Below, one piece after another: positions 2,303 through 22,541 of a stretch of 64,000 nt of DNA. Both the position numbers and the translations under genes were made by a program. The stretch comes from Fibrobacterales bacterium (GTDB lineage: Bacteria; Fibrobacterota; Fibrobacteria; Fibrobacterales; JAOPTW01). Position 1 is the first letter of the stretch, and the number at the start of each line of letters is the position of its first letter. The stretch covers positions 1 to 64,000 of the forward strand of contig JAOPTX010000057.1 in NCBI GenBank assembly GCA_051532055.1, given 5' to 3'. The notes beneath the pieces are model-generated. The model worked only from the letters and a program-made list of their open reading frames with translations, was not told the origin of the DNA and searched no databases.

Positions 2303-2397
2303 ATCCTCTAGCAAAAATAATATCTCTATGTCCCCTCAAGTCAAGAAAAAAATTGAGCACACAGTAGTAGAGCCAAGAATGCTATCAGCGGAACTTT

Positions 2398-2537
2398 GAT
2401 CATAACAATGGTCTCTTCTTTACCCTGAAACTAAACACACTTCTGTACTCAACTACAACTCAGTCTATGGGTTGTGCCGGTTATTGAAAACCACTACCCC
2501 AATCATCCATTTCTCTATACCTGAATTCAGTGGTTCT
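2398..2537. repeat. Dispersed repeat A copy 2
   Basis: Matches 1207-1346. Confidence 0.85.
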
Positions 2538-2828
2538 TCCGATACCTCTGTCGTTTCGGGTTTTTGTTACATGAAAGGTGGATTGATTGTGGTTGAGTGC
2601 TCGCTTAGGAGTAAAATGACTCGCAGTAATAGTTGGATTAGAAATATCATTTCTTGTAGGATGGCTATGGTATAACTCCAATGTATTGGTACAAAGTGGG
2701 CTGAGAGAGCCGGTGTTGATCTTGACCATGCTCATATTGAATGGCCTATAGTGATTACTCTCTTTAAATCAATAGCTGCAATTGCTAAATCTATATCATT
2801 AATCGCCTTTTATTTTTAATGAGCTCTT

Positions 2829-4373
2829 GTGGTATCAATGAAAAAAATAACCTTACGCAATACTATACTGGTACTGGGAATCATCTTTCAATGTGTCAGT
2901 GCATCAGAGGTGTCGGCCCCTTGCAGAGAGCATGATGCGCTCATTCTTATTCCCTCGGCATCAATCAACTGTGGTCTTAGTGTTACCATACAGACCTATA
3001 GTGGCTACTTACATGTTGCGTCCGTTGATTATGAGGGAAAGGTCTCATATCTACTAGGTACCCAAAAATTAAGCTTGAGTGATGATGCACTCACTTTTTT
3101 CGGAGTCAAAACATTAGTGTATCGATCAAAGGATAGTCGTACTTTAATTTCTCTACTTGGGACGTATAGCTTAGATGCTGGTAATGAGTATTATCGTAGA
3201 ACATCAGTGTTGAGTACTGAAGAGGCATACAATTGGGATTATGATAGATTTGGGGTTGGGGTACTCGGCTCTTTTATGATAACTCCTCAAGGAGTATTGA
3301 ATACTGATTTGAGTTACTCGTATCTTAAGTATGGATATGTATGGAATGGCGCTGTTGGGTTCAGTAAGAGAATGACTGATCACCTTTCGATGGTTATTGA
3401 ATTAAATGGTAGTTTTGGCGAGAGTGAATTGTATGAAGAGGAATTGGGTCATCTGACGACTCACGAAATTGACCAGGGTAGCGGCGTAAGTCCTGGAGGC
3501 CCAACACCTGGATATGAAAATAATACGAGTATTCCAGTTAAGGGTAGAAATGAGGCTCGATATCCCCGGCCTATGAGTGTGACACCAGTGCTTGGTTTGC
3601 AATACCAGAACTCTGGCTTTTTTGTAGATGGAGGGGTTCGGTTATTTTTAGGGACTCTTAATAAAGAGAACCACACGGTTGATTACCCAGTGTTTCCGTA
3701 TGTAGGAGTAGGGTATACCTTCTCATTGGTAGAACAGCTAAATGATGAAGGCTCAGTAAAAGAGGTAGAATCAGATATTTGTTTTGGAGTGAGTACTGAT
3801 ATTTCGATGGTATCAGAGTATAGTACTGAAAGAGAGCCTTCTGTATCTTTTGAGTCTGACTTTACTACAAGTATGGGGATTGGGATGTTTACTCGATATA
3901 CTATTGATGCTATTAGTTTTGAATTAGGTATTGAATACCGATATCGATCTATAATCAATAATCTCACCTTAGACAATGCATCGTCTTCTACACCGTTGTA
4001 CTATGAAGTGATTAACATTGATCAGCATTTACTTGGTATTCCCTTTACTGTAGAACATCCGGTATTCAGTACTGCTTTTGTGCAGGCAGGTGGGTTTATC
4101 TCAGTCCCTCTTCGTAGTGAGGTGTACTCAGGGGAGAAGCAGGCAAGCGAAGGGTTATTGGATTCAAAAGTGTCAATACAGTCATATAGTTATGGTCTGA
4201 TTATGGGGGCGGGTGTTGTGGTAATGCCTTCGGTGCAGCTTCTCTATAGATATAAACGGGGACTGCGTCCTTTGAGTGATGCTGTGGTGTTGAGGGGTGA
4301 TTATGTTGATAATGCAGAGCTTGGCAAATTGTTTGTTAAGGAGTACTCTCTTTCTGTTCGATATTTGTTTTAG
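2829..4373 (+). CDS. Secreted/outer-membrane beta-barrel protein (C-terminal porin/PorT-like barrel)
   Basis: Signal peptide, alternating beta-strand patterns (FELGIEYRYR, YGLIMGAG), terminal aromatic SLSVRYLF. Confidence 0.65.
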   Translation: MVSMKKITLRNTILVLGIIFQCVSASEVSAPCREHDALILIPSASINCGLSVTIQTYSGYLHVASVDYEGKVSYLLGTQKLSLSDDALTFFGVKTLVYRSKDSRTLISLLGTYSLDAGNEYYRRTSVLSTEEAYNWDYDRFGVGVLGSFMITPQGVLNTDLSYSYLKYGYVWNGAVGFSKRMTDHLSMVIELNGSFGESELYEEELGHLTTHEIDQGSGVSPGGPTPGYENNTSIPVKGRNEARYPRPMSVTPVLGLQYQNSGFFVDGGVRLFLGTLNKENHTVDYPVFPYVGVGYTFSLVEQLNDEGSVKEVESDICFGVSTDISMVSEYSTEREPSVSFESDFTTSMGIGMFTRYTIDAISFELGIEYRYRSIINNLTLDNASSSTPLYYEVINIDQHLLGIPFTVEHPVFSTAFVQAGGFISVPLRSEVYSGEKQASEGLLDSKVSIQSYSYGLIMGAGVVVMPSVQLLYRYKRGLRPLSDAVVLRGDYVDNAELGKLFVKEYSLSVRYLF

Positions 4374-4606
4374 GGGCGCTACAGCAAAACAAAAATTGTT
4401 GTAAAGTATGCCAAGAAGGCCAAGAACGTCATCAGCGAAACTTGGATCACAGTGGCCATTAGATTTTTCAGCATAACTGATCAAATTATTCATCTTCACA
4501 AGATTCATTGGTATTTTAGCCACTAAATTCTAAAGATACTGTTTTGAATTTTTCATTTAATAGTATTTTTGCGTCATTCAAATATCACGCAGTATCATGA
4601 GAGCAC

Positions 4607-6598: not shown

Positions 6599-7179
6599 GA
6601 TTGTCCTGCACTTGGAGTGTATGATGTTTTTATGTCTAGAAAATTCATTGTTAGTGTATCAATCTACGATGTTTGCCGGTCAAAAAATAGCTTATAATCA
6701 TAGGTATCCTATTGGTTCTTCTGAAATTTCTTCTAAAGCTATCTACAATCTCACGCGCCCGCTCACCGGTGTTCTATTCCCGATAGGTTTCGTATACGTA
6801 TACAATTCTATTGTTCTGGCAGTTGGAACATAAGTGTTCTCAGTACTTACTTGTCAATGGGGTAGAATAGGGGAGGCTAATGGGGAGAGGACTAACTGAA
6901 TACAGGTAGTAGATAAATATATTACGTAACTAATACTTTTGGGCTATAGGGAGTTGGTCTAAGTCTTTCTAGTTTCTTTGGGGAATCAAGGGGGGAGATT
7001 TACCCGATATTGGGAGAAGTGAGTGAAAGAGAATAAAACTGCAGGGTATTATTGTCATAAAGCATCGTTAAACGGTATTCGGCTCCCAAGGTTGCACCGG
7101 TTGAGGCTGTTACCATTCAGGTGGATAGCTTGGAAAGTGGAGGTGCTGAGGTGGGTGCCGGGTATATAATAAATAGAGG

Positions 7180-8013
7180 TTGGAGTGTATGAGTATGCCA
7201 GAGATATCATCTAAACGGGAAATACTGACTTTTCTATTACCGCTTATTTCATTTTGGGTGATCGTTCATTATACGATCTCGTACCTATGGTATTCACAGA
7301 TATTCGCTCACTATGGTGTACCACTGTTTCCGACCCTCTCCATGTATGACTTTTCTTTTGGGTTCATTAGTGTAAATATTCATTTGCTCCCGATGATAGG
7401 TAATCTGTTGTTTCTCTATGGAGTAGCAGTCGTCTTCTCTAAGCTCGACGGAAGGATCAAGGAACCAGGTCTCAGTAGATTTGAAACGTTTGTAGGTGAC
7501 AAAATAAAAATCATTTTTCGAATGCTCCCTGACTCAGTACAACTGACTCTTAATAACAAATGGCGACGTGCGAAGATGTGGGTATTCGGTATCATATGGG
7601 CTGGCTTTGTAAGTTTAATAGCGTGGTATGCGTTACAGAAGATACTTGCCATCAGTACATTTACAGCGCAGATGGGTGTTTATCTGGGGCTGTGTGCCCT
7701 GGCAATAGCAGCTCGTTATGTACGCAAGTATAGCATTTCATTTGTTCTCTTCTGTATGCTGGTATTTGGCATATGGGTTCATCTATTAATTACAGAGGCG
7801 GTGGATGGGGTTATTTCGAAGTCTTCGGATAGATCTATGACTCATACTAGTGTTGTCTCTTTTCGGTATAAATCGAAGGTGATTACTACCTCTGATAGTT
7901 TACAGGTATTCTATTATAATGATCGGTATTTGTTGACGATTGGGGCGGATAATCGGGTTGAGCGGTTGGATATGGGGGATGTTGATTTGGTTGTGTATGG
8001 GGGTGAGAGATGA
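7180..8013 (+). CDS. Hypothetical multi-pass membrane protein
   Basis: About 5 hydrophobic segments plus a soluble C-terminus. Confidence 0.7.
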   Translation: MECMSMPEISSKREILTFLLPLISFWVIVHYTISYLWYSQIFAHYGVPLFPTLSMYDFSFGFISVNIHLLPMIGNLLFLYGVAVVFSKLDGRIKEPGLSRFETFVGDKIKIIFRMLPDSVQLTLNNKWRRAKMWVFGIIWAGFVSLIAWYALQKILAISTFTAQMGVYLGLCALAIAARYVRKYSISFVLFCMLVFGIWVHLLITEAVDGVISKSSDRSMTHTSVVSFRYKSKVITTSDSLQVFYYNDRYLLTIGADNRVERLDMGDVDLVVYGGER

Positions 8014-8143
8014 TTATCGAATTCCATACAGAGGACATCCACTCTTCAGGGGGGGATAACTTCTAGTGCAGAGAAATGGCGGTCAGATAACCGTCACACC
8101 AATCTTGAAGGTTGGTGAGTATATATTCACGCTCGTTGAAGTT
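8012..8143 (-). pseudogene. Possible degraded UPF0149/YecA-like gene fragment
   Basis: Minus frame reads ...LQDWCDGYLTAISLH*KLSPPEEWMSSVW, resembling the DGFLTA...PSEW..IW N-terminal pattern; internal TAG. Confidence 0.3.
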
Positions 8144-8223
8144 TTAGATTGATTCTTCGCCCTGATGTTTGTTTAGGGTGGAGGTTATTGTTTCTATATG
8201 GGTTTTGTTGAGTTGTTCTATGT

Positions 8224-9132
8224 TCATTTTTGACTCTCTTCTTCGTAATTCCACATTCTAAAGTCATCGAGGGTTGCTTGCGCTGCTCCGTATGGATCAG
8301 GGAATAGTGTTGATGCTGTTACCCCATAAAGTGCGCATAATTTCAATAGTTCAGCAGACTTTGTGACTGGTACTGTTATTTTAATTAAGGCTTGGGGATA
8401 GGTGTCTATAAGGTATTGATCAATGTTATGTCTAATTTTAAAGGGATCGGGTTGACCTTTTGGGATATCTTGACGAAGCAGGGTAAAGCACCCTGATTGG
8501 GCAGCGATATTTTTATTAGTACTACTTGGGACTTTGACAATCTCAAGGTCTTTAAAGAGTCCTTTGGATTCAGAATTAAATGCCCAGATTGCTAATCTTT
8601 CGTTCTCTTTCCAGTTAGATTTTCGTTTCAGTGCGCTGGATGCTGAAAAATATGCAGCTACGTGTGAGCGATATGACCAATCAAGCAATCGTGTTGGTAG
8701 GCCATGGTGTTGAGCGTAGGCAAGTAGGTCTCGTACTTCAATTGGCGGCCAAAGTTTCTTTTGGTGTAAATATTGGCCAAAAGCATCGGGATTATTCAGA
8801 GCTAAATGTTTTTCTCTAAATGTTGATGAGTCATTGGGGAGAGCTATACCACTTTTGTCGCAGTGTTCGACAAAGGCTTGGATCGACCGGAATTCGTCAT
8901 ATAAGGTAAACGTTGAATCGAGCCATCTTTTAGCAAGTTCTGGCCGTGATTGTGAAAGGAAGTTCCCTATTCTGAATAAAGAAGGTTCTAAGCACCAGTT
9001 TGCATTTGCTTGCCCTCTGTAGATTATATCATGAGGGTCTTTGAATAGTGCATTTTCTGGGGATAGTAGGTCCCATAATTCTTTTGCTGTAGCGACATCA
9101 ATTGTAGTAAATTGCTGATTTATATTTGTCAT
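8224..9132 (-). CDS. FRG domain-containing protein
   Basis: IIYRGQANANWCLEPSLFR and AQHHGLPTRLLDWS...AAYF signatures, N..AQSGCF, LFPD; 4-nt overlap with RT stop. Confidence 0.93.
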   Translation of the reverse strand: MTNINQQFTTIDVATAKELWDLLSPENALFKDPHDIIYRGQANANWCLEPSLFRIGNFLSQSRPELAKRWLDSTFTLYDEFRSIQAFVEHCDKSGIALPNDSSTFREKHLALNNPDAFGQYLHQKKLWPPIEVRDLLAYAQHHGLPTRLLDWSYRSHVAAYFSASSALKRKSNWKENERLAIWAFNSESKGLFKDLEIVKVPSSTNKNIAAQSGCFTLLRQDIPKGQPDPFKIRHNIDQYLIDTYPQALIKITVPVTKSAELLKLCALYGVTASTLFPDPYGAAQATLDDFRMWNYEEESQK

Positions 9133-12008
9133 CTTCGTAGAACCTTATTGCAGTCATACCCTGGTGGTAATGGTTTAAATGGAGGGTCTTGTCTTTGATG
9201 TGATAAATATTGAAAATCTCTTAATGGCTGTATGTTCAGTTGAGTAGTTAGGATACAATGGTTTTCACCACCTTTTACATATATTAAGAGTTTACTTTCT
9301 GTTTTGGTAGGTTGCAATACACAAGAACCGCCATATTGGGAAGTATTTGAGTGTACAACATAGCAATGAAGATCTCTTACGGCAGATTCTAAAATGTGTT
9401 TATAATAGTTAGTATCTGGATTCCAAACACAAGCAACAAGTAAATCTAGTTCAGATTTGAATAGGGATCTGTGTCTTATGTCAGATAATTCAAAGCAATT
9501 ATAAGTCGCGAATGACATTCCTCGCCATTTGACTTTGTGATACATTGATCTTTTAAATAAATCTGATGCAGGTTTTAACCGTAGAGATTGAATAGTGTCA
9601 AGTTCCATTGGAGCATAATGATTTTTGATTCTTGCTGTAACTGAACAAGACTTATACTTGTCATTAATTTTAAAAGGGAGTGCTTCAATAGTTAAATTAT
9701 ACGCATAACCTTTTGATACCCAATGTTCTAGTCCAAATATTATCCCTAGTTGGTGTCTCCGGGAATGCGCAATTATAAAGGGTAGCCAACTTACAGGTAT
9801 TGAAACTTCAGGTAGAATTAACAAATCTACTTCTTCTTTAGTTGCATCATTGAGTATGTTGAATATTTTTGTTTGGCGTTCAAATGAAGTATTGGCTTTT
9901 TTATCTGGTCGTAATGCTGCCTGTATATCTTCTTTGGGTACTTGAATATTTGCTATAGCTACTTTTTGAGTAGTAAAAGAATCGGTTGATATTGTTAACA
10001 GGTTTTTCTTGATTGATTTAGGGTCTTTTCTTAGGCTCGTGTACTTTATAGGCAGAGAACCTGGGAAATACACTTTATATTCCTCTAATGAATCAGAAAT
10101 CCATGATTGAAGGGGGTCTGTATGATTGACTTTGTCTGCTAATGAGTGTGTTTGCCATTCATCAAAATGGATAAAACGGGGGGACATGGATAATTTGTGA
10201 TTATCTAAACCTGCTGATTTACTATTCAAATATTCAATTTCGTTTGTGAGGTCTCCTTCATAGTTCGTGTAATTGGCAAGAGGCCATGCAACTAAATTCG
10301 ACCTTATAAGGTTTGAATATCGTATTTGATCTGTAAATGAAAAAATGTCATTAGGTAAGTCATGATTTTCATAATCTAATAGAGCAAGGTTTATACTCAC
10401 AGAAATTTTGTTATACTCAAGTAAATTTGTTATAAGTCGGTCAGTAATGTGATCTGACTCTTTCTCATTAAAATACCGGATTTTAAAAATTTCATTTTGA
10501 ATTGAATTGTAAAATTCTATTAAATTTGCTTGTTTGTCTGGGGCGCTGTGTATGACTAGGTATTGATAAACTTTTTCCCACAGGCGTGAAAATTGAATGG
10601 CATTTGAGCCTTGGAAGAACATTTTGAGTTGCGGAACGATACTTTTTTGATTATCTAATTTACATAATCGGTGGGCATTAATGTGATTTGATAAAAAGCC
10701 TGAAAGTTCAGATTCATTTTCAGCAATGCCTACGACACTCCTGAATTTATTTATGGATCCTTCGTATAGTATATCATATGCACACTTATCTAAATCTGAT
10801 TCAAATGAGTCATTTGCTAAAAATTTAAAGGCACTACTTCTTTCATCAATATTATTTTGGAAAACTTGAAGTCCGGCTTTGCTAAAATTATTGTCAAAAT
10901 ACTGCAAAATGAGTTTGCTTTTTTGTAAAGGTATTATAGTACTCTTCACAGATAGACCATATTCACTTTCGGAACCTGGTAATTGATGTATGTTTGGTAA
11001 ATACTGCTCGATAAATTTTTCTATTGGCGCATTATCATCAACGATTACATTTCTATAGACAATTAGGATGTCGTCTACATACCTGCCATATTTAATAGGG
11101 TTTATAGCATGTTTCACGGTTATATCAAACTCTCTAAGGTGCCAGTTTGCTAATATAGAGGATGAGGTTAAGCCAATAGGTAAGCCAATAGGTAAGCCAG
11201 TTGGCTCAAGGCAGTCAGGATGCGTGGTTTTCAGTGAACGGCGAATTTTCTGTGCATATTTTTCATGTATGATTTGTAGAGTCTTATGTAGCTTTAAGAC
11301 AAGTTTTAATTGGGAACTATCATCTCCGAAATACTGATATAAAATATTAGTTATTTCTTGATAATCTATATTGATGTGATAGAAGTAAGACTTTAAGTCA
11401 AGTGATAATAGCGCCACGGGTTCGTGCTTTGAAAGTTCTAGGGCTGACTTTACAGCTATATCCCGCCATTTTTTATATTGATCAATATACAGCTTAAAAA
11501 GATCTCTACTTTTACTTTTTTGGTCATTATTACTTGAAAATTTAAATGAATCAGGTCCGAGTCTGTTGCCATAACACTCATCGATTAAATTATTGTCGAG
11601 GATAGTACCTACACAAAGTGACCAAAGTACTTCAATAATATGCAGTTCTACAGGCATGGAAATTAGATAATTAACTTTGTCGATATTATAGTTTGAAGAT
11701 GTTGTTACATTGGTAATGAATAAACCCTGATTGCTACCATTGAGTTTTTTATTTTGTTTGTCTTCAGGGCGATACACTGACTTTGGAATTAATTTATAGT
11801 CAATATCACTAATAAAAGAATCTATTTCCGTTTCATATTGGATGTCTTCAGAGTTAAGTATATGCTCTAGATAATCTAATCTTTCTTGAAAGTCATTTGT
11901 TTCAAACTCAGCAACTCTCTGTTTTAAAAAGAAATTTAAGTTTTCATGATATGCGTAGTTTTTTAGAAATAAAAATGCTTCCGTTAATAATTCATGATTA
12001 ATTTGCAT
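9129..12008 (-). CDS. Reverse transcriptase fused to C-terminal nitrilase/carbon-nitrogen hydrolase (DRT1/UG1-like defence RT)
   Basis: RT motifs LSLDLKSYFY, GLPIGLTSSSILAN, YGRYVDDILIV; nitrilase triad LILPEVS (E), RIKNHYAP (K), YNCFELSD (C). Confidence 0.92.
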   Translation of the reverse strand: MQINHELLTEAFLFLKNYAYHENLNFFLKQRVAEFETNDFQERLDYLEHILNSEDIQYETEIDSFISDIDYKLIPKSVYRPEDKQNKKLNGSNQGLFITNVTTSSNYNIDKVNYLISMPVELHIIEVLWSLCVGTILDNNLIDECYGNRLGPDSFKFSSNNDQKSKSRDLFKLYIDQYKKWRDIAVKSALELSKHEPVALLSLDLKSYFYHINIDYQEITNILYQYFGDDSSQLKLVLKLHKTLQIIHEKYAQKIRRSLKTTHPDCLEPTGLPIGLPIGLTSSSILANWHLREFDITVKHAINPIKYGRYVDDILIVYRNVIVDDNAPIEKFIEQYLPNIHQLPGSESEYGLSVKSTIIPLQKSKLILQYFDNNFSKAGLQVFQNNIDERSSAFKFLANDSFESDLDKCAYDILYEGSINKFRSVVGIAENESELSGFLSNHINAHRLCKLDNQKSIVPQLKMFFQGSNAIQFSRLWEKVYQYLVIHSAPDKQANLIEFYNSIQNEIFKIRYFNEKESDHITDRLITNLLEYNKISVSINLALLDYENHDLPNDIFSFTDQIRYSNLIRSNLVAWPLANYTNYEGDLTNEIEYLNSKSAGLDNHKLSMSPRFIHFDEWQTHSLADKVNHTDPLQSWISDSLEEYKVYFPGSLPIKYTSLRKDPKSIKKNLLTISTDSFTTQKVAIANIQVPKEDIQAALRPDKKANTSFERQTKIFNILNDATKEEVDLLILPEVSIPVSWLPFIIAHSRRHQLGIIFGLEHWVSKGYAYNLTIEALPFKINDKYKSCSVTARIKNHYAPMELDTIQSLRLKPASDLFKRSMYHKVKWRGMSFATYNCFELSDIRHRSLFKSELDLLVACVWNPDTNYYKHILESAVRDLHCYVVHSNTSQYGGSCVLQPTKTESKLLIYVKGGENHCILTTQLNIQPLRDFQYLSHQRQDPPFKPLPPGYDCNKVLRR

Positions 12009-12016
12009 GTTGACTC

Positions 12017-12175
12017 TTATGTTGAAACGGTGAATATGCTAAATAATAAAACAGGCAACGCCGCTAACGCTCCCACTCTACCAATGAAATCTTGAGGTCC
12101 GGAGCTGAGGTGTTTTAATAGTCCCGCTATCATTGTAATAATGGTAAAGAAAAGAATGATTTTCGTTGCAGGCAT
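12017..12175 (-). CDS. Small 52-aa two-helix membrane protein (not in ORF track)
   Basis: MPATKIILFFTIITMIAGLLKHLSSGPQDFIGRVGALAALPVLLFSIFTVST*; starts 3 nt after KAP stop, ends 8 nt before RT ATG. Confidence 0.6.
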   Translation of the reverse strand: MPATKIILFFTIITMIAGLLKHLSSGPQDFIGRVGALAALPVLLFSIFTVST

Positions 12176-12178
12176 ATC

Positions 12179-14158
12179 TCATTTACTCTCTTCAGTTTTT
12201 TGGGATGTGTATTGTTTAAGTACGTCTGAAATTGTGTTACTTAATCGAGAAAGTCCATCAATTGAAGGCGTAATATATTCTACTTGCTCTATTCTAATAC
12301 TTGCTTCTTCAATTAAGGTCTCTAAGAAAGGAATATCTAATTGTTTATGGTGTACTTCAATTAGTTCTCTGTATCTATGTTGCATGTGAGAATTTAACTC
12401 ATCTTTTAGGTGGTTGGGTATTTCTAGGTATTGATCAATAAACTGTTGTGGTGTAACGTTTTCGAACTTTGCTACTCCAAGTGTTTCGGATGTACTATGT
12501 TTTAACCACTCAACAAACCCTTCTAATGAAGTACACGTTTCTGTAAAAAGAGAATCTTTTTCTAATACTAGTTTCTCTCTATAGTGGTCTGATAGCATCG
12601 TGCTTAGCTTGGAATGGGACTCTTTAAGGCTCTTATAATCTTCTATATCTTGGAATGTTTTAAATTGATATTCGCCTTCTTTATGTTCACTTAATGCAAT
12701 TTTATCATCACTTATGATTTGCCTGATGTAATCTTCAAAGTAAATTTCCAAAGGTTCTGTAAATACAGGTAGGAGGCCTTTAAGTCTAATTTTATATAAG
12801 TATTCAAATGTGGTTAATATTGTGTCTGGACTTGTCACATTGTGTGAGGTGTACTCTTCTTTAATTTCCTGAAGTATTTCAATAAAGTCTTGATCTTTCA
12901 GATTCCACCATTGATAAATTCTACCTAAGAGTTTGCCAATACTAGTTGCGAAACTGTTATGAATATTAATTTCTTCTAACAGACTTTCTCTACTTAATGT
13001 TCCTTCTTCAAACCACTCTTTCCAAGTCTCAATACTTAATGACTCGGCAAAAGCTCCATCATACTTTTTTCTAAACTCATAATATGTATTGTTGAGTGGA
13101 TCTTCATTTGGGGATAATTTTTCTTTTTTGTTGGCAGCTCCCATTACTTGTGCATATTTTTCCCGTGGTAATCCTCCAAGTGTATTACTGTACAGTATGT
13201 CTTTTACTTTAAGGTCTCCAATATAAAGTGCATATTGATATGCAAAAAACTCCATAACTAAAAATGGCATATAGGTTTCATTGGCAAAAACATCATCTGC
13301 AGTAATCGGAGAGGGTTTGTCTGAGTCGGTGAGAATATGTTTAAATCTTTGGAATTCTAGTAGGGCATGTTTTAAAGACCGAAAGTTATTTTTTTTTGAG
13401 TTATCAAAAATTTGTAGTATACCTTTCTTGTGGGGCTTGAGTATCTCTATACATTTATCACCTAAAGGGCTCTCTTTATTTTCAAGATCTAACCAGCTAT
13501 CTAAGACTTCATGTGGGGTTGTTCTTATTTTAAATTCTTTACCAATGACTTTTTCTTTAACTGAGCTTAATTTAAATGGGGTAGAGTGGTCTTTCTGTTT
13601 TTCACAAGCCTCTTCCCACTTTTCATGTTCGGCTAGTAGAATGCAGTGTAAATGTTCATGTTCTACATATTGATTTATATATCCAAGTAGTTGGGGCATG
13701 GGGATATCAGCGCGTTCAACATCATCAAAAACAAGGACGCATAACTTGTTTTTAGTCAATTGTTCTTTTAAACCGTCGACAAAGGCGAAAGTTTCATCTA
13801 TAAGCGGATTAATCACTTGAACACCCTTGTAGGTTGCAGCAATTTTGCTGACAAGTTTTGTTCCACTTAGTGTCAATTTTAATTTTTCACTGGTCAGGAT
13901 TGGATGTAATGTTTCTTTTATTCGATCATCAACTTCATTCTTTGATTGAACTCCAAAAAGGCTAACATAAATTACGACTGGACCTTTTTCTCCCGTGAGA
14001 TTGTCTATACGTTGTTTATTGAATTCAAGACATTTTTTGATGAAATAAGTTTTACCTCTCCCCCAGTCACCAGTGATTAGAACAGCAAAGTCTGGATTAG
14101 GTCTTTCAAGGTAATGGTTATTCAAATAATCTTCTATATGTTTGTTAGAATTACTCAT
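12179..14158 (-). CDS. KAP family P-loop NTPase
   Basis: FAVLITGDWGRGKT Walker A, YVSLFG, VLVFDDVER Walker B, KEKVIG; GGAGAA-like RBS upstream. Confidence 0.9.
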   Translation of the reverse strand: MSNSNKHIEDYLNNHYLERPNPDFAVLITGDWGRGKTYFIKKCLEFNKQRIDNLTGEKGPVVIYVSLFGVQSKNEVDDRIKETLHPILTSEKLKLTLSGTKLVSKIAATYKGVQVINPLIDETFAFVDGLKEQLTKNKLCVLVFDDVERADIPMPQLLGYINQYVEHEHLHCILLAEHEKWEEACEKQKDHSTPFKLSSVKEKVIGKEFKIRTTPHEVLDSWLDLENKESPLGDKCIEILKPHKKGILQIFDNSKKNNFRSLKHALLEFQRFKHILTDSDKPSPITADDVFANETYMPFLVMEFFAYQYALYIGDLKVKDILYSNTLGGLPREKYAQVMGAANKKEKLSPNEDPLNNTYYEFRKKYDGAFAESLSIETWKEWFEEGTLSRESLLEEINIHNSFATSIGKLLGRIYQWWNLKDQDFIEILQEIKEEYTSHNVTSPDTILTTFEYLYKIRLKGLLPVFTEPLEIYFEDYIRQIISDDKIALSEHKEGEYQFKTFQDIEDYKSLKESHSKLSTMLSDHYREKLVLEKDSLFTETCTSLEGFVEWLKHSTSETLGVAKFENVTPQQFIDQYLEIPNHLKDELNSHMQHRYRELIEVHHKQLDIPFLETLIEEASIRIEQVEYITPSIDGLSRLSNTISDVLKQYTSQKTEESK

Positions 14159-14182
14159 GATTGTTCTCCCAAAATATGTATT

Positions 14183-15670
14183 TTAAGTTTGATCTAGTGT
14201 TGTGTACTCAGGATCACCGAAGTTTTTAACTACCAGTTCACTCTCTGTAGTAGTCGCTCCAGTTTCTATAGCAATTTGAGTATCCTCCTCAGCGGAAGCA
14301 TTTTCACTTTCCATGTTACTAACCTTTGTCACCTCCTCAACAATCCTCGGCGCAGAAGGCTCCCACTTAACAAGATGCTGAACCACATTCTTATAATACT
14401 CAACAATCATCGAGTCAAGGGTAACCACAAACTTAGACACCGCCGCAAAGTTCTTCCCAAAGTCCTTAATACGGATAATCCTAAACTCCTTAATCTCTAA
14501 GTCTTTAATCTGGCTGTAGATGGCATCGATATCCTGAAGCGCAATCCTATCTATCTGCCGTTTGTTTCTATACACAATATCTAACTTAAGCTCACCAGCG
14601 ACTTTGTCAAAGCTCTCTAAGCCCCTCTTCTGACAAGTATCAAACTGACGCTTAATCCACCCAAGCTGACCTTTCAGCTTCTTGTCTTTGGGAGCGGTAA
14701 GAGTAACACACGCCTCAATAATCCGTTTTTCAAACATCGCATTAATATCAATATTCGACACAGCACCTTTTACCCGCAAGACAGAATAGAGATGTTTGGT
14801 ACTCAAGAGCTTCTTCTTGTCATCATCAATTCTATTCTTCAGCTTCCCTTTGTATTTATTCTCACCAGAGCCAACAAAGAGCCCAAGCTTGCGACTGAGC
14901 AATAGCGCTAAATCCTTCTCTTCCTGATGCCAACTGATAACCGCTTGCTCAACGTCCGGATCTGACTGTTTAAGGCTGGTTCCTGAGTTTATCTTCTCTA
15001 CGACATGCTTCCAGCCAGGTTTCATCTCATTGAAGCCACAGACACCTGATTTCTTGTTTTCTAGATAGAGTACAATCTCTCGCATTATCTCTATCTGATC
15101 GTCATCGGCAATGTTTGTGTCATTATCAAATAAGAGGATATGCGCTATGGTCAGGAGGTATGACCATGAAAAGTGGTAGGGAGTGAAGTTTTTGGTCGAC
15201 CGGATGGTGAGAGGGGACTGAGTAGGGTCGGTGACATACTCATTCGAAACCGTAATTAAGTTTGGTATAGAAAGCGCCTTCGAAAGCGCCGCATACCGGT
15301 CTATCTGCTCCTGCTCAAGCTTAGCGGTGCCGTTTTTCATCTCAAAAAGCGCCGCGTCTCTGATGGTGCCACCCTTTACGACCAACAGCAGCCCATCAAT
15401 ACGAGACTCCGGAAACTCCTTAAATGCCACTTCGGTATAGACAAAGATGGTGCCCCCGGTCTGCATCTTTACCGCAGAGAGGATATGCTTCCGAAACTCT
15501 TTAATGAGCCTGATGCCCGATAAGATTACAGAGGTCAGTGCCATCTCATCGCCCAGCTTTTGAATAGGGATAAGGGTAGCCTGCCTGAGAATGATCTCAC
15601 CACATTCAACGTATGCCTCAAATTCAGTCTTCTTGAGCCCAATAAGTTTTGTCAGTTTCTTATCCATCAA
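14183..15670 (-). CDS. Putative PD-(D/E)XK-fold protein
   Basis: YTEV...RIDGLLLV...ALFEMKNG...QIDRY pattern resembling E..(P)D..ExK nuclease cores. Confidence 0.6.
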   Translation of the reverse strand: MMDKKLTKLIGLKKTEFEAYVECGEIILRQATLIPIQKLGDEMALTSVILSGIRLIKEFRKHILSAVKMQTGGTIFVYTEVAFKEFPESRIDGLLLVVKGGTIRDAALFEMKNGTAKLEQEQIDRYAALSKALSIPNLITVSNEYVTDPTQSPLTIRSTKNFTPYHFSWSYLLTIAHILLFDNDTNIADDDQIEIMREIVLYLENKKSGVCGFNEMKPGWKHVVEKINSGTSLKQSDPDVEQAVISWHQEEKDLALLLSRKLGLFVGSGENKYKGKLKNRIDDDKKKLLSTKHLYSVLRVKGAVSNIDINAMFEKRIIEACVTLTAPKDKKLKGQLGWIKRQFDTCQKRGLESFDKVAGELKLDIVYRNKRQIDRIALQDIDAIYSQIKDLEIKEFRIIRIKDFGKNFAAVSKFVVTLDSMIVEYYKNVVQHLVKWEPSAPRIVEEVTKVSNMESENASAEEDTQIAIETGATTTESELVVKNFGDPEYTTLDQT

Positions 15671-15791
15671 TTCCTCAGTGTGTAATAGTGTAGTGATTAT
15701 TTAGAATATAATAATGTTTGTAAGCTGGAGCGTTGTAGAGAATGGGTTAGAGTGCCCCATTGTTCTATGCGCTCCAAAGAAGACAACATAA

Positions 15792-15835
15792 CACTAATTG
15801 GGATTTGTGTAAATAGCCCAAACGTACTAGTCTCT
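15792..15835. repeat. 44-bp direct repeat C copy 1
   Basis: cactaattgggatttgtgtaaatagcccaaacgtactagtctct, 40/44 identical to 22498-22541. Confidence 0.85.
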
Positions 15836-16073
15836 GGTGGGTTATTAATCCCCCCCAAAAAATACGCGGTAATATCAGCAGAATAATTTTCCAAATTACC
15901 AAAAAAATGGACACAACTTGCAGAAGTATAACGAACGCTTACTGCACGTAAGCTGAATGTGTCATTAAGGTTATGTTTTTAAGTAATGTAGAATAGTATC
16001 TATAAATCTTTATCTATGTTTAGATGTGGGTACACGACAGTTTATGTGAGTACGGTATTGAGTAAGGGCTATA

Positions 16074-18992
16074 ATGAATTCCAGAAAATCGATTTTTTAT
16101 ATGTGCGTTCTATTAATGTTTCATTCGCATGTGTTTGCCGTGTGTTCTTTAAACAAAAATTCTGATTCGGAATATGAAATTGGTACCTATGAAGATTTAA
16201 AATTAATCGGTATTGGTGATTGCTCATTGAGAGATACGTTTCGCATTATTGCAGATATTGACGCCAGCCCTTCTCAGACAGAGAATTGCGTGAATAACCT
16301 TGATTGCAAGGGATTTATCCCTATTGGTGCGAGTTCAAATAAATTTTATGGTACGGTATGGGGGGATAAACACATTATCTGGAATCTCTATATTAATCGA
16401 CCCGCTGAAGATAACGTAGGTCTCTTTGGATTTGTTGGAAGAGGAGGACGCGTTCTTAGTCTAGGGGTGACTGGTACTGTGACTGGAAACAAAAATGTGG
16501 GAACTATTGCAGGTCTTAATGATGGTTGGATATCAATGACTTTTAGCAGTTCTACAGTGCATGGAAACGATAGCTATGTGGGTGGACTCATTGGAGATAA
16601 TTCGAGTTGGGTTATATCAAGCTACTCTACAGGAGCAGTTACTGGAAGTGCCAGCTATATTGGTGGACTCGTTGGCAGTAATACTGGTGCATTATATAAA
16701 ACCTATTCAAGCGCTAGTGTTGCAAGAGTTGGAACAAATACCGGGTCTTATTATGTAGGAGGTCTGGCAGGAATTACAGATTTCACCACCGTCGATGGGT
16801 ATAGTGTGGGACGTGTCGGCGGGAATACTGCTTATTATGGTGGGTCAATAGGGCAATTAGGGCCTAATGCTGATGTAATTAGAATATTTTGGAGTAGTGA
16901 ACTCTCTGGACAAAATATCGGTAATTATGGTAGTCCAGATCCCGATGTAATCAAAACCGATGAACATCGCTTAACACTATCTGCAACGTATGATTATTGG
17001 GATTTTGGAAAAAACTGGGATATCAGTGAAACTAAAAGTTATCCCTTGCTCAGGGAAGTTTACAATGCTCCAATAGCTTTTACTGAAACAATGATTTCTG
17101 GCGATCTGTTTAGCGTAAACCAACTGTTAATAAATGATTATAGCAGTACACCAAGCCGAGAGATGGTCGTTAAGATTGAGGATCAGCTCGGATGTAGTCA
17201 AGGCGCTACTGGTACTATTGATTTGTCTGGCCTTAGTCAAGGAGATACCTGCGCTGTAACGTATCGTATTGGAGAAAAGTTTTCGGTAACTGATACTCTT
17301 TGGGGGAACAGCGTTAATTCATATGTCATTTTCTCACAATTGTTATTTAATCAAATTCCAGACCAGATGTATGGAACAGCAAATACTCTTTCATTAAATG
17401 CTTCAAATGCAGCTGATGCCGTAACACCCATTGTTTTTACATCTTCGGATATCGGTGTAGCGAGTATTTCCGGAAATGAAGTTCAAGTTAAGGGAGCTGG
17501 AACTACTATAATTACTGCTACACAAGGAGCGCTATCTGTCACACAACAACTGGTAGTGTACCCCAAATTGATAACGGTTAATGCAGTAGCCCAAGACAGG
17601 GAGTATGATGGCACAAAATTTGTTACTGTAACTGGTGTTCCCGTAGGGGTACTTCCTGGTGATGATGTAAGCTGGGAATTGGACACGTGTTGGTTATACG
17701 ATAAAAATGCTGAACGAGACAAAAATGTTGCAATACGTGGTTCGGGACTTGTTGGCGTTGACACAGCTAACTATATAATCAATCAGATCCACTCTCTTAC
17801 CGTCAATATTTATCCCAAACCTATAACTATTGATACCATTGAAATACCCGAGAAAGAATACGACGGGACAACTGAAGCATTTTTTACTCTCTGGGATCCT
17901 GCTTTTGATTTGATGACCGGTATAAAAATGAATACACTTCTTAGAGATAATATTTTACCTGAACTAGACTCGGCATTGTATCATGATAAAAATGTAGGAG
18001 CGGACAAGGATATTGATTTATATATTCACTTTGGTGGTGTTGATGTAGATAATTATTCGTTTCCCTATCCCTTGAGTGTAAAAGGAACCATTGTCCCGCG
18101 CGAAATCACAGCAGTGAAACTTCACTTCGAAAAAAAGGTGTATGATGGAACTCGTAATGTGGTTTATGAATCAGCAGAATTTCAAAATATCATTCCTGGC
18201 GATATCCTTACCCTTGACCTTGATACTGCATATATGGTAACTAAGGAAATTCATAGCATGACTCCAGGTATATGCATTATGGAAAAACTTATTTTGGGTA
18301 CGCTTAAGTTATCGAGTGTTGATTTTCAAAACTATTCAATAGGGGAGACACCACTTACATACGGTGTCTGTGTATTTCCCGCTCCACTAACAATAACAGC
18401 AAATGATTCAGTGGTATATGGGGATGAGACAATTACTGAGTACTCTTATAGTTATGATGGCATTGTTGCAGGTGAAGATGAGTCAATAGTCAAAAACCTT
18501 GTAACCGAAATAGTATCTGAAAATGATTCACAAACTGTGGTGATAGGTTCTGGAGCGCTTGCATTTAATTATGTCATTAGTTATGAACCCGGTGTAATTA
18601 CTCGGCTTGCAGGAGAACGCCCTTATGACAACCCAATTATAAATAATCCCACAGATACCAATCAAGGAATAAGTCACTCTGGCTCAAGTGAGCAATCAGG
18701 TAAATCTTCCGATACATTTGAATTGGGCAATAGTTTTGATAGTGGTTTGGGGCAGGGGCTGTCAAGTAATGATGTCTCTCCAATTAATATTCCGGGTAAT
18801 ACTCATGACATATCCATAACTCATGCAGGTATCGTTACACATGACGTGAAAGGTGTTGTAGAAATTTATACAGTTGTTGGGACAAAAGTGTCCTCTTTTA
18901 ATGTAACCCAAAATGGGTTGTATCACCATACATTACAGCCCGGTGTATATATTGTAAAAAGTAGTAAAGGTTATCAGTTGTTTAATTTTTAG
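16074..18992 (+). CDS. Secreted GLUG-repeat protein with YDG-type repeats and T9SS-like C-terminal tail
   Basis: Signal peptide; VGLFG/VGGLIG/IGGLVG repeats; DREYDGT, EKEYDGT, KKVYDGT; tail EIYTVVGTKV...LQPGVYIVK. Confidence 0.85.
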   Translation: MNSRKSIFYMCVLLMFHSHVFAVCSLNKNSDSEYEIGTYEDLKLIGIGDCSLRDTFRIIADIDASPSQTENCVNNLDCKGFIPIGASSNKFYGTVWGDKHIIWNLYINRPAEDNVGLFGFVGRGGRVLSLGVTGTVTGNKNVGTIAGLNDGWISMTFSSSTVHGNDSYVGGLIGDNSSWVISSYSTGAVTGSASYIGGLVGSNTGALYKTYSSASVARVGTNTGSYYVGGLAGITDFTTVDGYSVGRVGGNTAYYGGSIGQLGPNADVIRIFWSSELSGQNIGNYGSPDPDVIKTDEHRLTLSATYDYWDFGKNWDISETKSYPLLREVYNAPIAFTETMISGDLFSVNQLLINDYSSTPSREMVVKIEDQLGCSQGATGTIDLSGLSQGDTCAVTYRIGEKFSVTDTLWGNSVNSYVIFSQLLFNQIPDQMYGTANTLSLNASNAADAVTPIVFTSSDIGVASISGNEVQVKGAGTTIITATQGALSVTQQLVVYPKLITVNAVAQDREYDGTKFVTVTGVPVGVLPGDDVSWELDTCWLYDKNAERDKNVAIRGSGLVGVDTANYIINQIHSLTVNIYPKPITIDTIEIPEKEYDGTTEAFFTLWDPAFDLMTGIKMNTLLRDNILPELDSALYHDKNVGADKDIDLYIHFGGVDVDNYSFPYPLSVKGTIVPREITAVKLHFEKKVYDGTRNVVYESAEFQNIIPGDILTLDLDTAYMVTKEIHSMTPGICIMEKLILGTLKLSSVDFQNYSIGETPLTYGVCVFPAPLTITANDSVVYGDETITEYSYSYDGIVAGEDESIVKNLVTEIVSENDSQTVVIGSGALAFNYVISYEPGVITRLAGERPYDNPIINNPTDTNQGISHSGSSEQSGKSSDTFELGNSFDSGLGQGLSSNDVSPINIPGNTHDISITHAGIVTHDVKGVVEIYTVVGTKVSSFNVTQNGLYHHTLQPGVYIVKSSKGYQLFNF

Positions 18993-19071: not shown

Positions 19072-19293
19072 TCAAAAATCATTGTCGCTGATCACTTTCA
19101 GACAATAGTTTTCCATAAGTATATGAAAGCCACTGCAAACTCCCGAGATGTTGGTGCCCCCATTCTGGATCTTTACTGCAGAGAGGGTAGGCTTCCGAAA
19201 CTCTTTAATGAGACTAATCTCACCACATTCAACGTATGCATCAAATTCAGTCTTCTTGAGCCCAATAAGTTTTGTCAGTTTCTTATCCATCAA
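19072..19293 (-). pseudogene. Truncated, internally deleted copy of the 5' end of the 14183-15670 gene
   Basis: MMDKKLTKLIGLKKTEFDAYVECGEI...LIKEFRK.LSAVK.Q.GGT; nucleotide near-identity to 15595-15671 and 15449-15507. Confidence 0.88.
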
Positions 19294-19551
19294 TTATACT
19301 GGCGGACATTTTGACCTGAGACAAGGGGAGGGGAAGCCCTTGATACGTTGTTGGAGAATATGGGGGAGGGGTGTAGGAGTGACTTTTGGTCTGGAAAGTA
19401 TTCTGTTGGTGTTTTCAGCCTTAATGCTGAATGAGGCACATAATTATTTTACTCCTCTACCCATTTTGCCATAATTATATTGCCAATGTAGTGTAATGCT
19501 CCAAACGATTAATGTATTTTTTACATCACTCTATTTACTGCTTGGGCAAAT

Positions 19552-22380
19552 ATGATTTTTAATGTAATGATTTTATTGTGTTTTCTAGTATTACCTGCGT
19601 TTGCGCTAAACGGTACTCTCAATGGAGACGGTACTGTTGATTCCCCCTGGCTTGTAGATGATTATTCTGACCTTAAAATGGTTGGAGACGATAAATCAGG
19701 ATACCTATACTCTGATCATTATCGATTAACAGCCAACATTAACGCATCACTTTCAAAATCTGAGAACAATGGAGAAGGATTTGTACCTATTCCACGTATT
19801 TCGGTTTTCACTGGTAGTTTACATGGGGCAGGTCATGTTATATATGGCCTGTATATTAATCGACCCCTAATAGATGGCGGCGCTCTCATTCGTCGATCAC
19901 GTGGGGCTGTGATCGATAGTTTAGGGGTGATAGGTGACGTTACAGGCATGTCAGACATTGGGATGATCGTAGGTTTTGCAGAAGAAACAACGATCACTCA
20001 CAGCTACAGTTCTGGTGTTGTTACTGGAAGAAATAAGGTTGGAGGTATGGTTGGAAAATCAGATAGCTTAACGTTAATAGATAGTTATTCTACTGCAATG
20101 GTTTGGGGAGGTACAAGAGTAGGCGGACTTGTAGGGGATTTTCCCCATGGTACTATGAGACAGTGTTATTATAGTGGGATTATTTCTTATGGAACCCACG
20201 GTGGCCCGGCAGTGGCCAGTATGGGGGCACTTGTGGGGTATCAATTCTCTTCAGAAGTGACAGCAAGTCATTGGTATGGAGATATTGTAGGGGTGCGGCC
20301 TTTTTCTAATACATTTGAGGAAATGTGTAGCCTCACTACATATGTGGGTTGGGATTTTGATACTATATGGGAATTACAACCAGAAAGTTTTCCGACATTA
20401 AGAGGAGTAACTACGGCACCAATGGGGGCTCCTGATACAGTGTCAATGCTCTCTGAACCAATTACTCTCACACCATTTTTGGATAATGACCTTTATTTAC
20501 AAGGGGGCTCTATTGTCGCAAAACAAACAGGGTACTCTCATATGAATCGTCTGCGCGATTCTCTATACGTCCACTATAAACCTGGAATAGTAATTCAGCC
20601 AAATGATACGCTTTGGGGTGGGATAACGTATGTAGTAGCCCCTTACAGTGATACTATCTCTATAGACTCATATGATGATCTAAAATTAATCGGGAACAAT
20701 TGGCAGTATCCTTTGGGGGGAGTCTATCGTTTAACTACTCATATTGACGCATCTCCTTCAAAGAATGAAAATGATGGAAAGGGCTTCACACCTATAGGGA
20801 GCCTTGCTCAAAGATTTACGGGTGATTTTAATGGCGCTGGTTATACTATAAGTGGATTATTTATACATTCTAATGAATTTGAAATTGGCCTTTTTGGGAG
20901 CACCTTAGATGCAATAATCGATAGTGTAACCATAAGTGGTGATATTACTGGATATTCGCATGTAGGGTCACTGGTAGGTATGGCTGAATTTACTCAAATA
21001 TTTCAATGCCATAGCAGAGGTTCAGTCACGGGTGAAAGCAGAACTGGCGGGCTTATTGGCGAATTAAGGGATGCCAATTTAAAATATAGTTCTCATAGTG
21101 GTACAGTATCCGGAAAAGATAATGTCGGAGGTTTGGTTGGCTATAACGTCGATTGGTCTCAAGTTGCACCCATTATAGAATATTGCTACAGTAGTGGTTC
21201 TGTATCGGGCGAAAATTATGTGGGTGGTCTTGTGGGAAGGGGCTCAAATATTGAAAAAAGCTATAGTAGCTGTGCTGTAAGTGGAGAAATATCGGTTGGT
21301 GGTCTTGTTGGAGAGGGTTCAAATATTGATTATACTTATAGTGTCGGACCTGTTTCGGGTAAAGAAAATGTAGGCGGACTTGTAGGGTATTCACCTCATT
21401 CAATTACTCACAGTTACAGTAGCAGTATTGTCAAAGGCGATTCGAACGTAGGGGGAGTCGTTGGCAGGGGAGCATTTCAAGGTGTTGGTGGTTCTTACTG
21501 GAATAAGGGTGCGGTAAAAAATCCAACGAATGATTTTGGTATAGGGTTAACATCCGATGAAATGAAATTAATGAGTTCATTTGAACCAAACTTTCAGTTT
21601 GGGTTTAGAGAGTGGGTAATACATGATAGTGTGAGTTACCCAGGAATAAGAGGGATAAATAATACACCTGTGGTGTCGAAGATACAGCCTCAGCAAATAA
21701 AAGAGGGCGGGAGCCTTACGGTGTTAGTATCAATGACAGACGCAAGTGATGCTGATAATAATGCGAACATGAATTCTATGGATTCTCTTATTGCTAACAA
21801 TTATGATGGTGGCAATCGGCAACAACTTTCAATAGTTGTTGGTGCAGGTAATAATTATACGAGTCAAGGCTCAACAATTCACTCTGATGCAGGTTTTATT
21901 GGTGAATTATTGGTTCCAATACAGGTGTTTGATGGGGGTATTACTAGCCACGTCGTAATAATGACTGTTACAGTGGTAGATAAAGCTCCAGAAAGCGTAT
22001 CGAGTGGTGAAGAGGGGTCAAGTAGTGCCTATTCAGCAATACAATACTCGAGTGATATACATTCTTTTCAATCAAGTTCCTCTCACTCAAATATAAATGA
22101 CACTACTCCAGATGTTTTGAACTACTCAAGTAGTTTCTTGACTACCGATTCATTGGAAATTGCCGGGATAAATGGTTATACATCAGAAAAAAGAGATCGT
22201 ATATTTCTAATAAATAACAAAAGCCGTGCGACTGACTTTATTAGTGGACCAGTAGGTGAAAGTAGGTTTACGTTATATTCTGTACATGGATCAGTAGTTA
22301 AAGAAGGGTGGATTACACAAGATTATTTGGTTGATTTTAGTAGCCTTAAAGAAGGAGTGTATGTTATTCGCTTTTGGTAA
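19552..22380 (+). CDS. Secreted GLUG-repeat protein with T9SS-like C-terminal tail
   Basis: GDGTVDSPW start, many VGGLVG repeats in two blocks, Ser-rich linker, tail FTLYSVHGSVV...SLKEGVYVIRF. Confidence 0.85.
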   Translation: MIFNVMILLCFLVLPAFALNGTLNGDGTVDSPWLVDDYSDLKMVGDDKSGYLYSDHYRLTANINASLSKSENNGEGFVPIPRISVFTGSLHGAGHVIYGLYINRPLIDGGALIRRSRGAVIDSLGVIGDVTGMSDIGMIVGFAEETTITHSYSSGVVTGRNKVGGMVGKSDSLTLIDSYSTAMVWGGTRVGGLVGDFPHGTMRQCYYSGIISYGTHGGPAVASMGALVGYQFSSEVTASHWYGDIVGVRPFSNTFEEMCSLTTYVGWDFDTIWELQPESFPTLRGVTTAPMGAPDTVSMLSEPITLTPFLDNDLYLQGGSIVAKQTGYSHMNRLRDSLYVHYKPGIVIQPNDTLWGGITYVVAPYSDTISIDSYDDLKLIGNNWQYPLGGVYRLTTHIDASPSKNENDGKGFTPIGSLAQRFTGDFNGAGYTISGLFIHSNEFEIGLFGSTLDAIIDSVTISGDITGYSHVGSLVGMAEFTQIFQCHSRGSVTGESRTGGLIGELRDANLKYSSHSGTVSGKDNVGGLVGYNVDWSQVAPIIEYCYSSGSVSGENYVGGLVGRGSNIEKSYSSCAVSGEISVGGLVGEGSNIDYTYSVGPVSGKENVGGLVGYSPHSITHSYSSSIVKGDSNVGGVVGRGAFQGVGGSYWNKGAVKNPTNDFGIGLTSDEMKLMSSFEPNFQFGFREWVIHDSVSYPGIRGINNTPVVSKIQPQQIKEGGSLTVLVSMTDASDADNNANMNSMDSLIANNYDGGNRQQLSIVVGAGNNYTSQGSTIHSDAGFIGELLVPIQVFDGGITSHVVIMTVTVVDKAPESVSSGEEGSSSAYSAIQYSSDIHSFQSSSSHSNINDTTPDVLNYSSSFLTTDSLEIAGINGYTSEKRDRIFLINNKSRATDFISGPVGESRFTLYSVHGSVVKEGWITQDYLVDFSSLKEGVYVIRFW

Positions 22381-22497
22381 TATCATAGTAAATCAATACA
22401 CATAATTAAAAAGATAAGTGCACTTGTAACCCTCCCGACAACCTGTAGCTGCTATTATAGTTAGCTATCAATCATGCCAGCCAGATGGTAAATGTAG

Positions 22498-22541
22498 CAC
22501 TTATTGAGATGTGTGTAAATAGCCCCAACGTACTAGTCTCT
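22498..22541. repeat. 44-bp direct repeat C copy 2
   Basis: cacttattgagatgtgtgtaaatagccccaacgtactagtctct. Confidence 0.85.

Follow-up and report, generated by a model that had tools for sequence, protein, structure and literature searches.

Do tightly packed and co-oriented defence genes necessarily make up one system? This question is raised by a block of five open reading frames (ORFs), built around a fusion of a reverse transcriptase (RT) and a nitrilase, at positions 8224 to 15670 of a stretch of Fibrobacterales DNA of 64,000 nucleotides (contig JAOPTX010000057.1; hereafter, the whole stretch is called the window). An initial annotation, made from the sequence alone, had proposed either a new composite anti-phage system or several systems stacked into one operon. 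Our analysis favours the second of these proposals and speaks against a five-gene composite, as no conserved linkage of the genes was found elsewhere. The locus is probably a stack of independent anti-phage modules in one operon around an RT-nitrilase of a known type, and not one new five-part system. From gene 1 onward, the members of the block are as follows.

14183-15670, minus strand: gene 1 ("P1"), 495 amino acids (aa) from a TTG start, probably 494 aa from the ATG at 15667
12179-14158, minus strand: KAP-family P-loop NTPase, 659 aa
12017-12175, minus strand: small hydrophobic ORF, 52 aa, with two hydrophobic segments
9129-12008, minus strand: UG5-large RT-nitrilase, 959 aa, an RT with a C-terminal CN-hydrolase
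8224-9132, minus strand: FRG-domain protein, 302 aa

Gene order and spacing can be read directly from the coordinates, which agree exactly with the earlier description of five co-oriented minus-strand ORFs with successive spacings of 24, 3, 8 and -4 nt; at the last junction, the RT stop and the FRG start share 4 nt (ATGA). The true start of gene 1 is probably the ATG at 15667, the second codon of the called ORF, because GAGGA precedes that ATG and because homologues begin MDKKL. Shine-Dalgarno-like purine runs also lie upstream of the KAP and 52-aa ORF starts. A consensus promoter scan returned 28 promoter-like sites, no excess over the 29.0 +/- 5.5 found in shuffles, and by this same scan, no better than shuffles, the junctions hold no minus-strand promoter-like site. 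The corresponding consensus scan for terminators found one weak terminator-like site in the interior of the block and no strong one on the minus strand, and an Rfam gathering scan of window positions 7000-17000 found no RNA family.

The surroundings of relatives carry the argument for a stack. Starting from the RT, we fetched 14 genome loci, with 10-kb flanks, whose RTs are 41-50% identical to that of the window. None gave a tblastn match for the window gene 1, KAP, 52-aa ORF or FRG gene, and no small membrane ORF recurred beside the 14 RTs. When Pfam was run on the 122 neighbour ORFs within 5 kb of these RTs, FRG was found at 0/14 loci and a KAP NTPase at a single one (L013, weighed below); at another (L014), a YhcG PDDEXK gene lies directly upstream of the RT. 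What does recur is a type I restriction-modification (R-M) operon: the RT stands between hsdS and hsdR at five of the 14 loci (L001, L002, L005, L006 and L013), and three same-order RT-nitrilase relatives (L134, L135 and L136; 28% identity) directly follow hsdR-hsdM-hsdS, without the other genes of the window. RT-nitrilase relatives are thus found in or directly after type I R-M operons at 8/17 loci (5 + 3), and the 17 loci together hold no FRG relative, no gene-1 relative and one unrelated KAP. Some of these loci have features of their own. The RT is accompanied by SIR2-HerA and McrBC genes at L006 and by Mrr and KAP genes at L013. At L013 (10001-12867), the RT match also falls into two pieces that join at 11905, apparently in different frames, and at L014 (10001-13171) into two pieces with a gap of ~240 nt; either may reflect a frameshift or an insertion.

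For gene 1, 151 metagenome loci were confirmed, of which 80 were retained (27 longer than 6 kb and 53 at <=6 kb). No tblastn match for the KAP, the 52-aa ORF, the RT or the FRG gene was found at any of the 80, and no neighbour family recurred among the gene-1 loci except in near-identical contigs and an integrase cluster. Among the 118 ORFs nearest to gene 1 at the 27 longer loci, Phage_integrase was seen in six loci, and the other neighbours include NikA/MobC, type ISP and Eco57I-type R-M, ParE/PIN (toxin-antitoxin), SMODS and AbiEi genes, as well as one 299-aa RVT_1 protein.

The KAP and FRG surveys covered 401 evenly drawn genomes from the phylum of locus L003. PDC-S49, the candidate family to which the KAP protein belongs, is present in 11/401 genomes. 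Ten loci were fetched (a partial match at a contig end was excluded), and these hold no RT, no gene-1 relative and no small membrane ORF downstream of the KAP. PDC-S15, the candidate family of the FRG protein, is present in 32/401, and 20 fetched loci gave no tblastn match for the RT, the KAP or gene 1. The UG5 profile matches a single genome of the 401, the survey's centre genome, which is without PDC-S49 and PDC-S15; therefore, the RT family is found in 0/32 FRG-bearing and 0/11 KAP-bearing genomes. FRG genes readily sit against strangers: on longest-ORF calls, 8/18 abut or overlap (<=4 nt) an unrelated same-strand neighbour, and these neighbours are mutually unrelated (an integrase, HsdS, a metallo-beta-lactamase fold, GmrSD_N at three loci, Eco29kI and unknowns).

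The exact five-gene arrangement was not found at any other locus examined, and what the surveys document directly is that the four families have no conserved linkage elsewhere. The initial annotation had looked to conserved neighbourhoods around close RT homologues; KAP, FRG and nuclease genes essentially do not co-occur with these homologues, the nearest of which is only 51% identical. Because the arrangement is found nowhere else, because no pair of the families is linked and because RT-nitrilase and FRG genes are habitually wedged in other operons, we favour independent modules. These would be packed head-to-tail, probably on one transcript, and each would act alone. Module A would be gene 1, a stand-alone member of an undescribed and horizontally spread family that may cleave nucleic acid, and module B a stand-alone soluble KAP NTPase of PDC-S49. 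Module C would be the UG5-large RT-nitrilase, possibly with the upstream 52-aa ORF as partner, a system of the "RT-nitrilase + 1TM" or DRT11 kind (TM, transmembrane; DRT, defence RT); by analogy with its relatives, it may confer an abortive-infection-like protection that needs both the RT and the nitrilase active sites. Module D would be a stand-alone FRG protein of PDC-S15. The tight spacing would probably stem from single-gene cassettes inserting into existing defence operons, since RT-nitrilase and FRG relatives do so elsewhere. More generally, tightly packed and apparently translationally coupled defence genes can still be independent cassettes. Operon-like spacing alone is weak evidence of a composite system, because RT-nitrilases ride type I R-M operons and FRG genes overlap unrelated neighbours.

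Several points weigh against a stack. The four junctions are very tight and would also fit a single functional system. The G+C content at third codon positions (GC3) is low in both the KAP (0.26) and RT (0.23-0.27) genes, which would fit a joint arrival. Since the closest RTs are only 41-51% identical, a lineage-specific partnership would be invisible in relatives. There is also the KAP NTPase of L013 (1/14 RT loci), a protein of 458 aa whose gene is the second one after the RT and is preceded by an Mrr-like gene. A 7172-nt plasmid-like contig (L108) carries a MobA/MobL relaxase, a PDC-S49-type KAP, an HTH gene and an FRG gene; this distant FRG gene, 1.8 kb from the KAP on the opposite strand, makes up the only co-occurrence of two window families that was seen. 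The reverse tests consisted of tblastn with the window proteins and of Pfam on selected neighbours only, and many of the gene-1 loci are short. Finally, the functional independence of the modules is argued from genomics alone.

Could all five genes (nuclease, NTPase, membrane protein, RT-nitrilase and FRG) nevertheless be one new system? Their single orientation, the four tight junctions and the lack of a strong minus-strand terminator-like site within the block would suit this idea, but we give it almost no credence. No linked pair among the four families was seen in the loci examined from each side, the GC3 of gene 1 is sharply different (gene 1, 0.51; FRG, 0.32; eight surrounding genes, 0.27-0.42), and a cut-down repeat of gene 1, unaccompanied by the rest of the block, is found 3.6 kb away:

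19072-19293, minus strand: cut-down copy of the gene 1 5' end, a 73-aa ORF (BLASTP 3e-20) matching gene-1 residues 1-25 and 53-74, with a 27-residue internal deletion

DNA repeats are found at 15586-15672 and 19209-19295 (97%) and at 15448-15514 and 19152-19218 (88%), and the cut-down copy sits between paralogous adhesin-like genes (16074-18992 and 19552-22380), all of which suggests past duplication or recombination at this place. We counted the GC3 spread among the block genes in favour of the stack; together with the cut-down copy, it fits, without proving, different origins for gene 1 and the KAP-RT stretch.

The RT-nitrilase matches the PADLOC profile RT_UG5-nitrilase (PDLC02995) from end to end (E 1.1e-260, 865.6 bits, with residues 4-959 aligned to positions 3-955 of the 958 in the profile), and its residues 581-952 match the RTasNitrilase profile (6.6e-33). 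Its earlier placement among the UG/Abi defence RTs is thereby upheld. The proposed likeness to UG1 and DRT type 1 is not, as the next other UG group, Drt1a, scores 85.5 bits (5.3e-25) in the nitrilase part only (best stretch, residues 721-935); on these profile scores, the protein is UG5-large (UG/Abi class 3), not UG1/DRT1. Both catalytic motifs are intact, as had been stated: the YVDD box at residues 310-313 (Y310 V311 D312 D313) and the nitrilase triad E734, K795 and C838 are invariant in an alignment of 23 RT homologue sequences.

DRT type 1 (Gao 2020, per PMC9226505) is a UG1 RT-nitrilase with a small membrane protein. The block resembles it in having an RT-CN-hydrolase fusion with a putative small membrane protein alongside, but its RT is of a different clade and has 959 aa, as compared with the 1200-1300 aa of UG1 proteins. 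In Mestre et al. 2022 (PMC9226505), UG5-large proteins join an RT to a CN-hydrolase, 31/299 members have a TM protein (clusters 85 and 1858; "sometimes encoded downstream"), and this protein is stated to be needed by the E. coli UG5 system. A P4-like satellite was the source of an "RT-nitrilase + 1TM" UG5 system validated in E. coli, where protection was obtained at room temperature only (Rousset et al. 2022, PMC9122126). A UG5-large system of S. meliloti was named DRT11; its RT and fused nitrilase are reported to suffice alone, with an abortive-infection-like phenotype, and no noncoding RNA is reported (Sanchez-Nieto et al. 2026, PMC13436386). The available text of PMC9226505, PMC9122126 and PMC13436386 mentions no KAP or FRG partner for UG5 systems; "FRG" has 0 occurrences in that of PMC9226505 and PMC9122126, and word-start matches to "KAP" are unrelated words. 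The earlier remark that the arrangement was not recognised as a described DRT stands for the five-gene order, found nowhere else examined, but not for its core, as UG5-large with a small TM gene has already been described and validated.

Compared with "RT-nitrilase + 1TM" and DRT11, the window protein shares the full-length RT_UG5-nitrilase match, a length of ~1000 aa, the YVDD box and the E-K-C triad, and a putative small membrane ORF adjoins the RT, where part of the family has its TM gene (31/299, PMC9226505). It differs in several respects. In a tblastn search of plasmids, the RT gave distant matches only, to DRT11 (S. meliloti; 25% identity) and to an E. coli plasmid (30%), where the RT is followed by a 156-aa gene without visible signs of coding for a membrane protein. 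The putative membrane ORF of the window lies upstream of the RT, with two hydrophobic segments and without a detectable homologue, while the TM gene of PMC9226505 is sometimes a downstream one. The family is also found in just 4/208 genomes of the window's own class (the window's own and those of the three 28%-identical relatives). Among 5.8 billion clustered proteins, the best RT match reaches only 51% identity, and truly close relatives therefore do not exist in this collection. No relative of the RT, KAP or FRG protein turned up in scans of viral contigs, and tblastn of the RT against a phage collection found nothing. The locus thus adds a very divergent UG5-large member (<=51% identity) from a lineage in which the family is rare.

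The KAP protein (KAP_NTPase PF07693, 60.6 bits against a cut-off of 20, 2e-16) has the Walker A motif GDWGRGKT and matches PDC-S49 (PADLOC PDLC05031; 1.5e-87, with residues 1-624 aligned to positions 1-590 of the 624 in the profile) and phrog_4740 (1.2e-46). Many KAP members have TM helices inserted in or after the NTPase domain; the window KAP has no 19-residue segment with a mean hydropathy >=1.6 and, judged by its hydropathy, is the soluble form. The FRG protein (PF08867, 71.4 bits against a cut-off of 25, 1.2e-19) matches PDC-S15 (PADLOC PDLC04937; 1.9e-36, with residues 3-287 aligned to positions 7-244 of the 254 in the profile) and phrog_4962 (2.9e-60). These full-length matches to candidate families bear out the defence association that had been assigned to both proteins. 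The "S" in PDC-S49 and PDC-S15 presumably denotes a single-gene candidate, and among the papers listed by a literature search for the two names, no report of an experimental test was seen (PDC-S15 is mentioned in passing only). As elsewhere in these families, the surroundings are variable and often defence-like or mobile (e.g. hsdS plus Schlafen/AlbA_2 genes in the case of KAP); in the window, both share an operon with an RT-nitrilase, which was seen in 0/10 KAP and 0/20 FRG loci.

Two recurrent arrangements of these families were also observed. A PDC-S49-type KAP stands in the middle of an ABC-transporter operon, between solute-binding and permease genes, at L106 (8575-10356) and L107 (1532-3286), where it adjoins molybdenum-cofactor (Mob_synth_C) and molybdopterin-oxidoreductase genes and is syntenic in the two genomes. 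An FRG gene is followed by an abutting or overlapping GmrSD_N gene (DUF262-type, 353-358 aa) at L125 (5146-6976), L127 (1361-3171) and L133 (6157-7979), and FRG and GmrSD_N may be a conserved two-gene pair.

The 52-aa ORF fills the 167-nt spacer between KAP and RT, with gaps of 3 nt on the KAP side and 8 nt on the RT side. It has two hydrophobic stretches (12 segments of 19 residues with a mean hydropathy >=1.6). An exhaustive phmmer search of 1.84 billion representatives found no real homologue, only three matches inside proteins of 416-1659 aa, and there is no family match in Pfam, PADLOC, NCBIfam or PHROG. This orphan, an ORF rather than an established gene, is a possible candidate for a small membrane partner of the RT-nitrilase.

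If the partnership extended further, the KAP, the 52-aa membrane ORF and the RT-nitrilase would form one three-gene composite, in which the NTPase would serve the RT-nitrilase as sensor or switch, the small membrane protein would be the effector, and gene 1 and FRG would be separate neighbours. The gaps of 3 and 8 nt would suit such a composite, as would the GC3 values of KAP and RT (alike and low, unlike that of gene 1) and the presence of a KAP NTPase <2 kb from the RT at L013. An RNA-derived contig of 151 nt also spans the KAP/52-aa ORF junction. The RNA data come from one small library, of the same sample as a DNA run that may be the source of the window, and two contigs of this library lie inside the block at a depth of ~3 (12108-12258, across the junction, and 15308-15617, in gene 1). 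Because strand, ends and a single transcript are invisible in these contigs and DNA carry-over is possible, they are a weak hint of RNA representation only, and the uncovered rest of the block is no evidence of silence. We consider the three-gene composite unlikely, as 13/14 RT loci and 3/3 same-order RT loci are without a KAP, and that of L013 is a different protein, not matched by tblastn with the window KAP and placed downstream behind the Mrr-like gene. In addition, 0/10 PDC-S49 loci have an RT or a downstream small membrane ORF, 0/11 KAP-bearing genomes have the RT family, and the activity of RT-nitrilases has been reported without an NTPase (PMC13436386; PMC9122126).

Gene 1 is the most useful by-product of this analysis and its most interesting loose end, as it points to an undescribed, widely transferred nuclease-like family. 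No match was found in Pfam, PADLOC, NCBIfam, PHROGs or PDB sequences. It has 535 homologues; those among the matches listed are 49-64% identical, all "hypothetical" or unnamed, and their source names include Actinomycetia, Nitrospirota, WOR-3, a spirochaete, gammaproteobacteria and a Heimdallarchaeota metagenome-assembled genome. The AF2 models are confident (pLDDT 83 for the whole protein and 86 for residues 1-200) and show an N-domain (~11-200), a C-domain (~213-438) and a tail (445-495) predicted to be disordered. Residues D92, E110 and K112 are invariant in alignments of 25 and of 23 sequences and sit on the predicted strands E86-99 and E102-111 of the AF2 models. The best VIA matches of the N-domain are 1y88 (Z 8.2, rmsd 3.2, 114 aligned), Card1 (7.6) and Can2 (7.4), followed by PaqCI, FokI, EcoT38I, MspJI, McrC and SduA, among others, most of the 50 listed being PD-(D/E)XK-fold nucleases. 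Foldseek gave this domain a probability of 0.8-0.93 for EcoT38I, McrC, 1y88 and PaqCI; with the whole model, it returned nothing at E <= 0.001. The C-domain resembles YbjN and type III secretion (T3SS) chaperone-like folds (VIA: 2a8e, Z 8.6; 2xga, Z 7.3; YbjN 5fr7, Z 7.2). The sole sequence-family lead came from the Atlas: a cluster with a score of 0.91, 18% of whose members carry PDDEXK_4.

The models thus point to a PD-(D/E)XK nuclease-like N-domain joined to a YbjN/chaperone-like C-domain, with Z scores that are middling; as they reach 8.2 at most, this fold call draws on the consistency of the matches and on the motif. The earlier description of gene 1 as PD-(D/E)XK-like is sustained by the invariant D92/E110/K112 and by the VIA and Foldseek matches. 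Like the PD-(D/E)XK defence nucleases (Can2/Card1 domains, Shedu SduA, McrC and type IIS enzymes), gene 1 would have the fold in its N-domain together with an invariant D...ExK motif, but it has no sequence-level membership in their families, and its predicted C-domain is like YbjN and T3SS chaperones rather than CARF or another known sensor domain. Gene 1 was also compared by hhalign with the genes upstream of two other PDC-S49 KAPs; no relation was found, those genes being a MobA/MobL relaxase and HsdS. Its family is unannotated and counts 535 homologues, those listed bearing source names from several phyla; given also the nuclease-like domain and neighbours of a mobile or defence type, gene 1 may reasonably be put forward as a candidate for a new protein that acts alone in defence or conflict. 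One can imagine a bolder combination. The KAP would gate the divergent UG5 RT-nitrilase in a lineage-specific three-part system that includes the orphan two-helix membrane peptide, and separately gene 1, as a PD-(D/E)XK nuclease with a YbjN/chaperone-like sensor, would found a new and widely transferred single-gene defence family; this strikes us as quite unlikely.

How did the block come to this place? The same-genus genome G001 is without it and is syntenic to the window only at ~2315-4395 (94%) and from ~27000 onward (87%). The block therefore lies within a variable stretch of ~22 kb, although the two flanks map to separate G001 contigs. The genes next to the block are adhesin-like (YDG, GLUG and Fib_succ_major domains), not defence genes. 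In a further reading, a mobile or variable region would carry the genes as cargo, and some of them (gene 1, KAP and FRG) would serve element maintenance or other conflicts and not phage defence. In its favour are the ~22 kb without a syntenic match in G001, the integrases and NikA/MobC genes that often neighbour gene-1 relatives, the 7-kb contig on which a KAP relative comes after a MobA/MobL relaxase, and the status of PDC-S49 and PDC-S15 as candidate families, with no report of a test among the papers listed by our literature search. Against this, no integrase, transposase or tRNA-type marker was found among the Pfam matches for the ORFs at window positions 679-32410, and anti-phage activity of the RT-nitrilase kind is backed by experiment (PMC9122126, PMC13436386). 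We regard the cargo reading as very improbable and retain the stack of anti-phage modules.

Several minor features accompany the variable stretch. A 47-nt direct repeat of 89% identity is present at 15789-15835, upstream of gene 1, and at 22495-22541, downstream of the second adhesin-like gene. Short stretches at ~19289-19333 and ~23165-23221 match many G001 contigs (80-100% over 25-57 nt) and probably represent dispersed repeats. One further ORF adjoins the block on its downstream side:

7180-8013, plus strand: 277-aa ORF with a TTG start and no family match

The highest signal of the RNA library in the examined stretch, at 7423-8052 with a depth of up to ~21, lies on this ORF.

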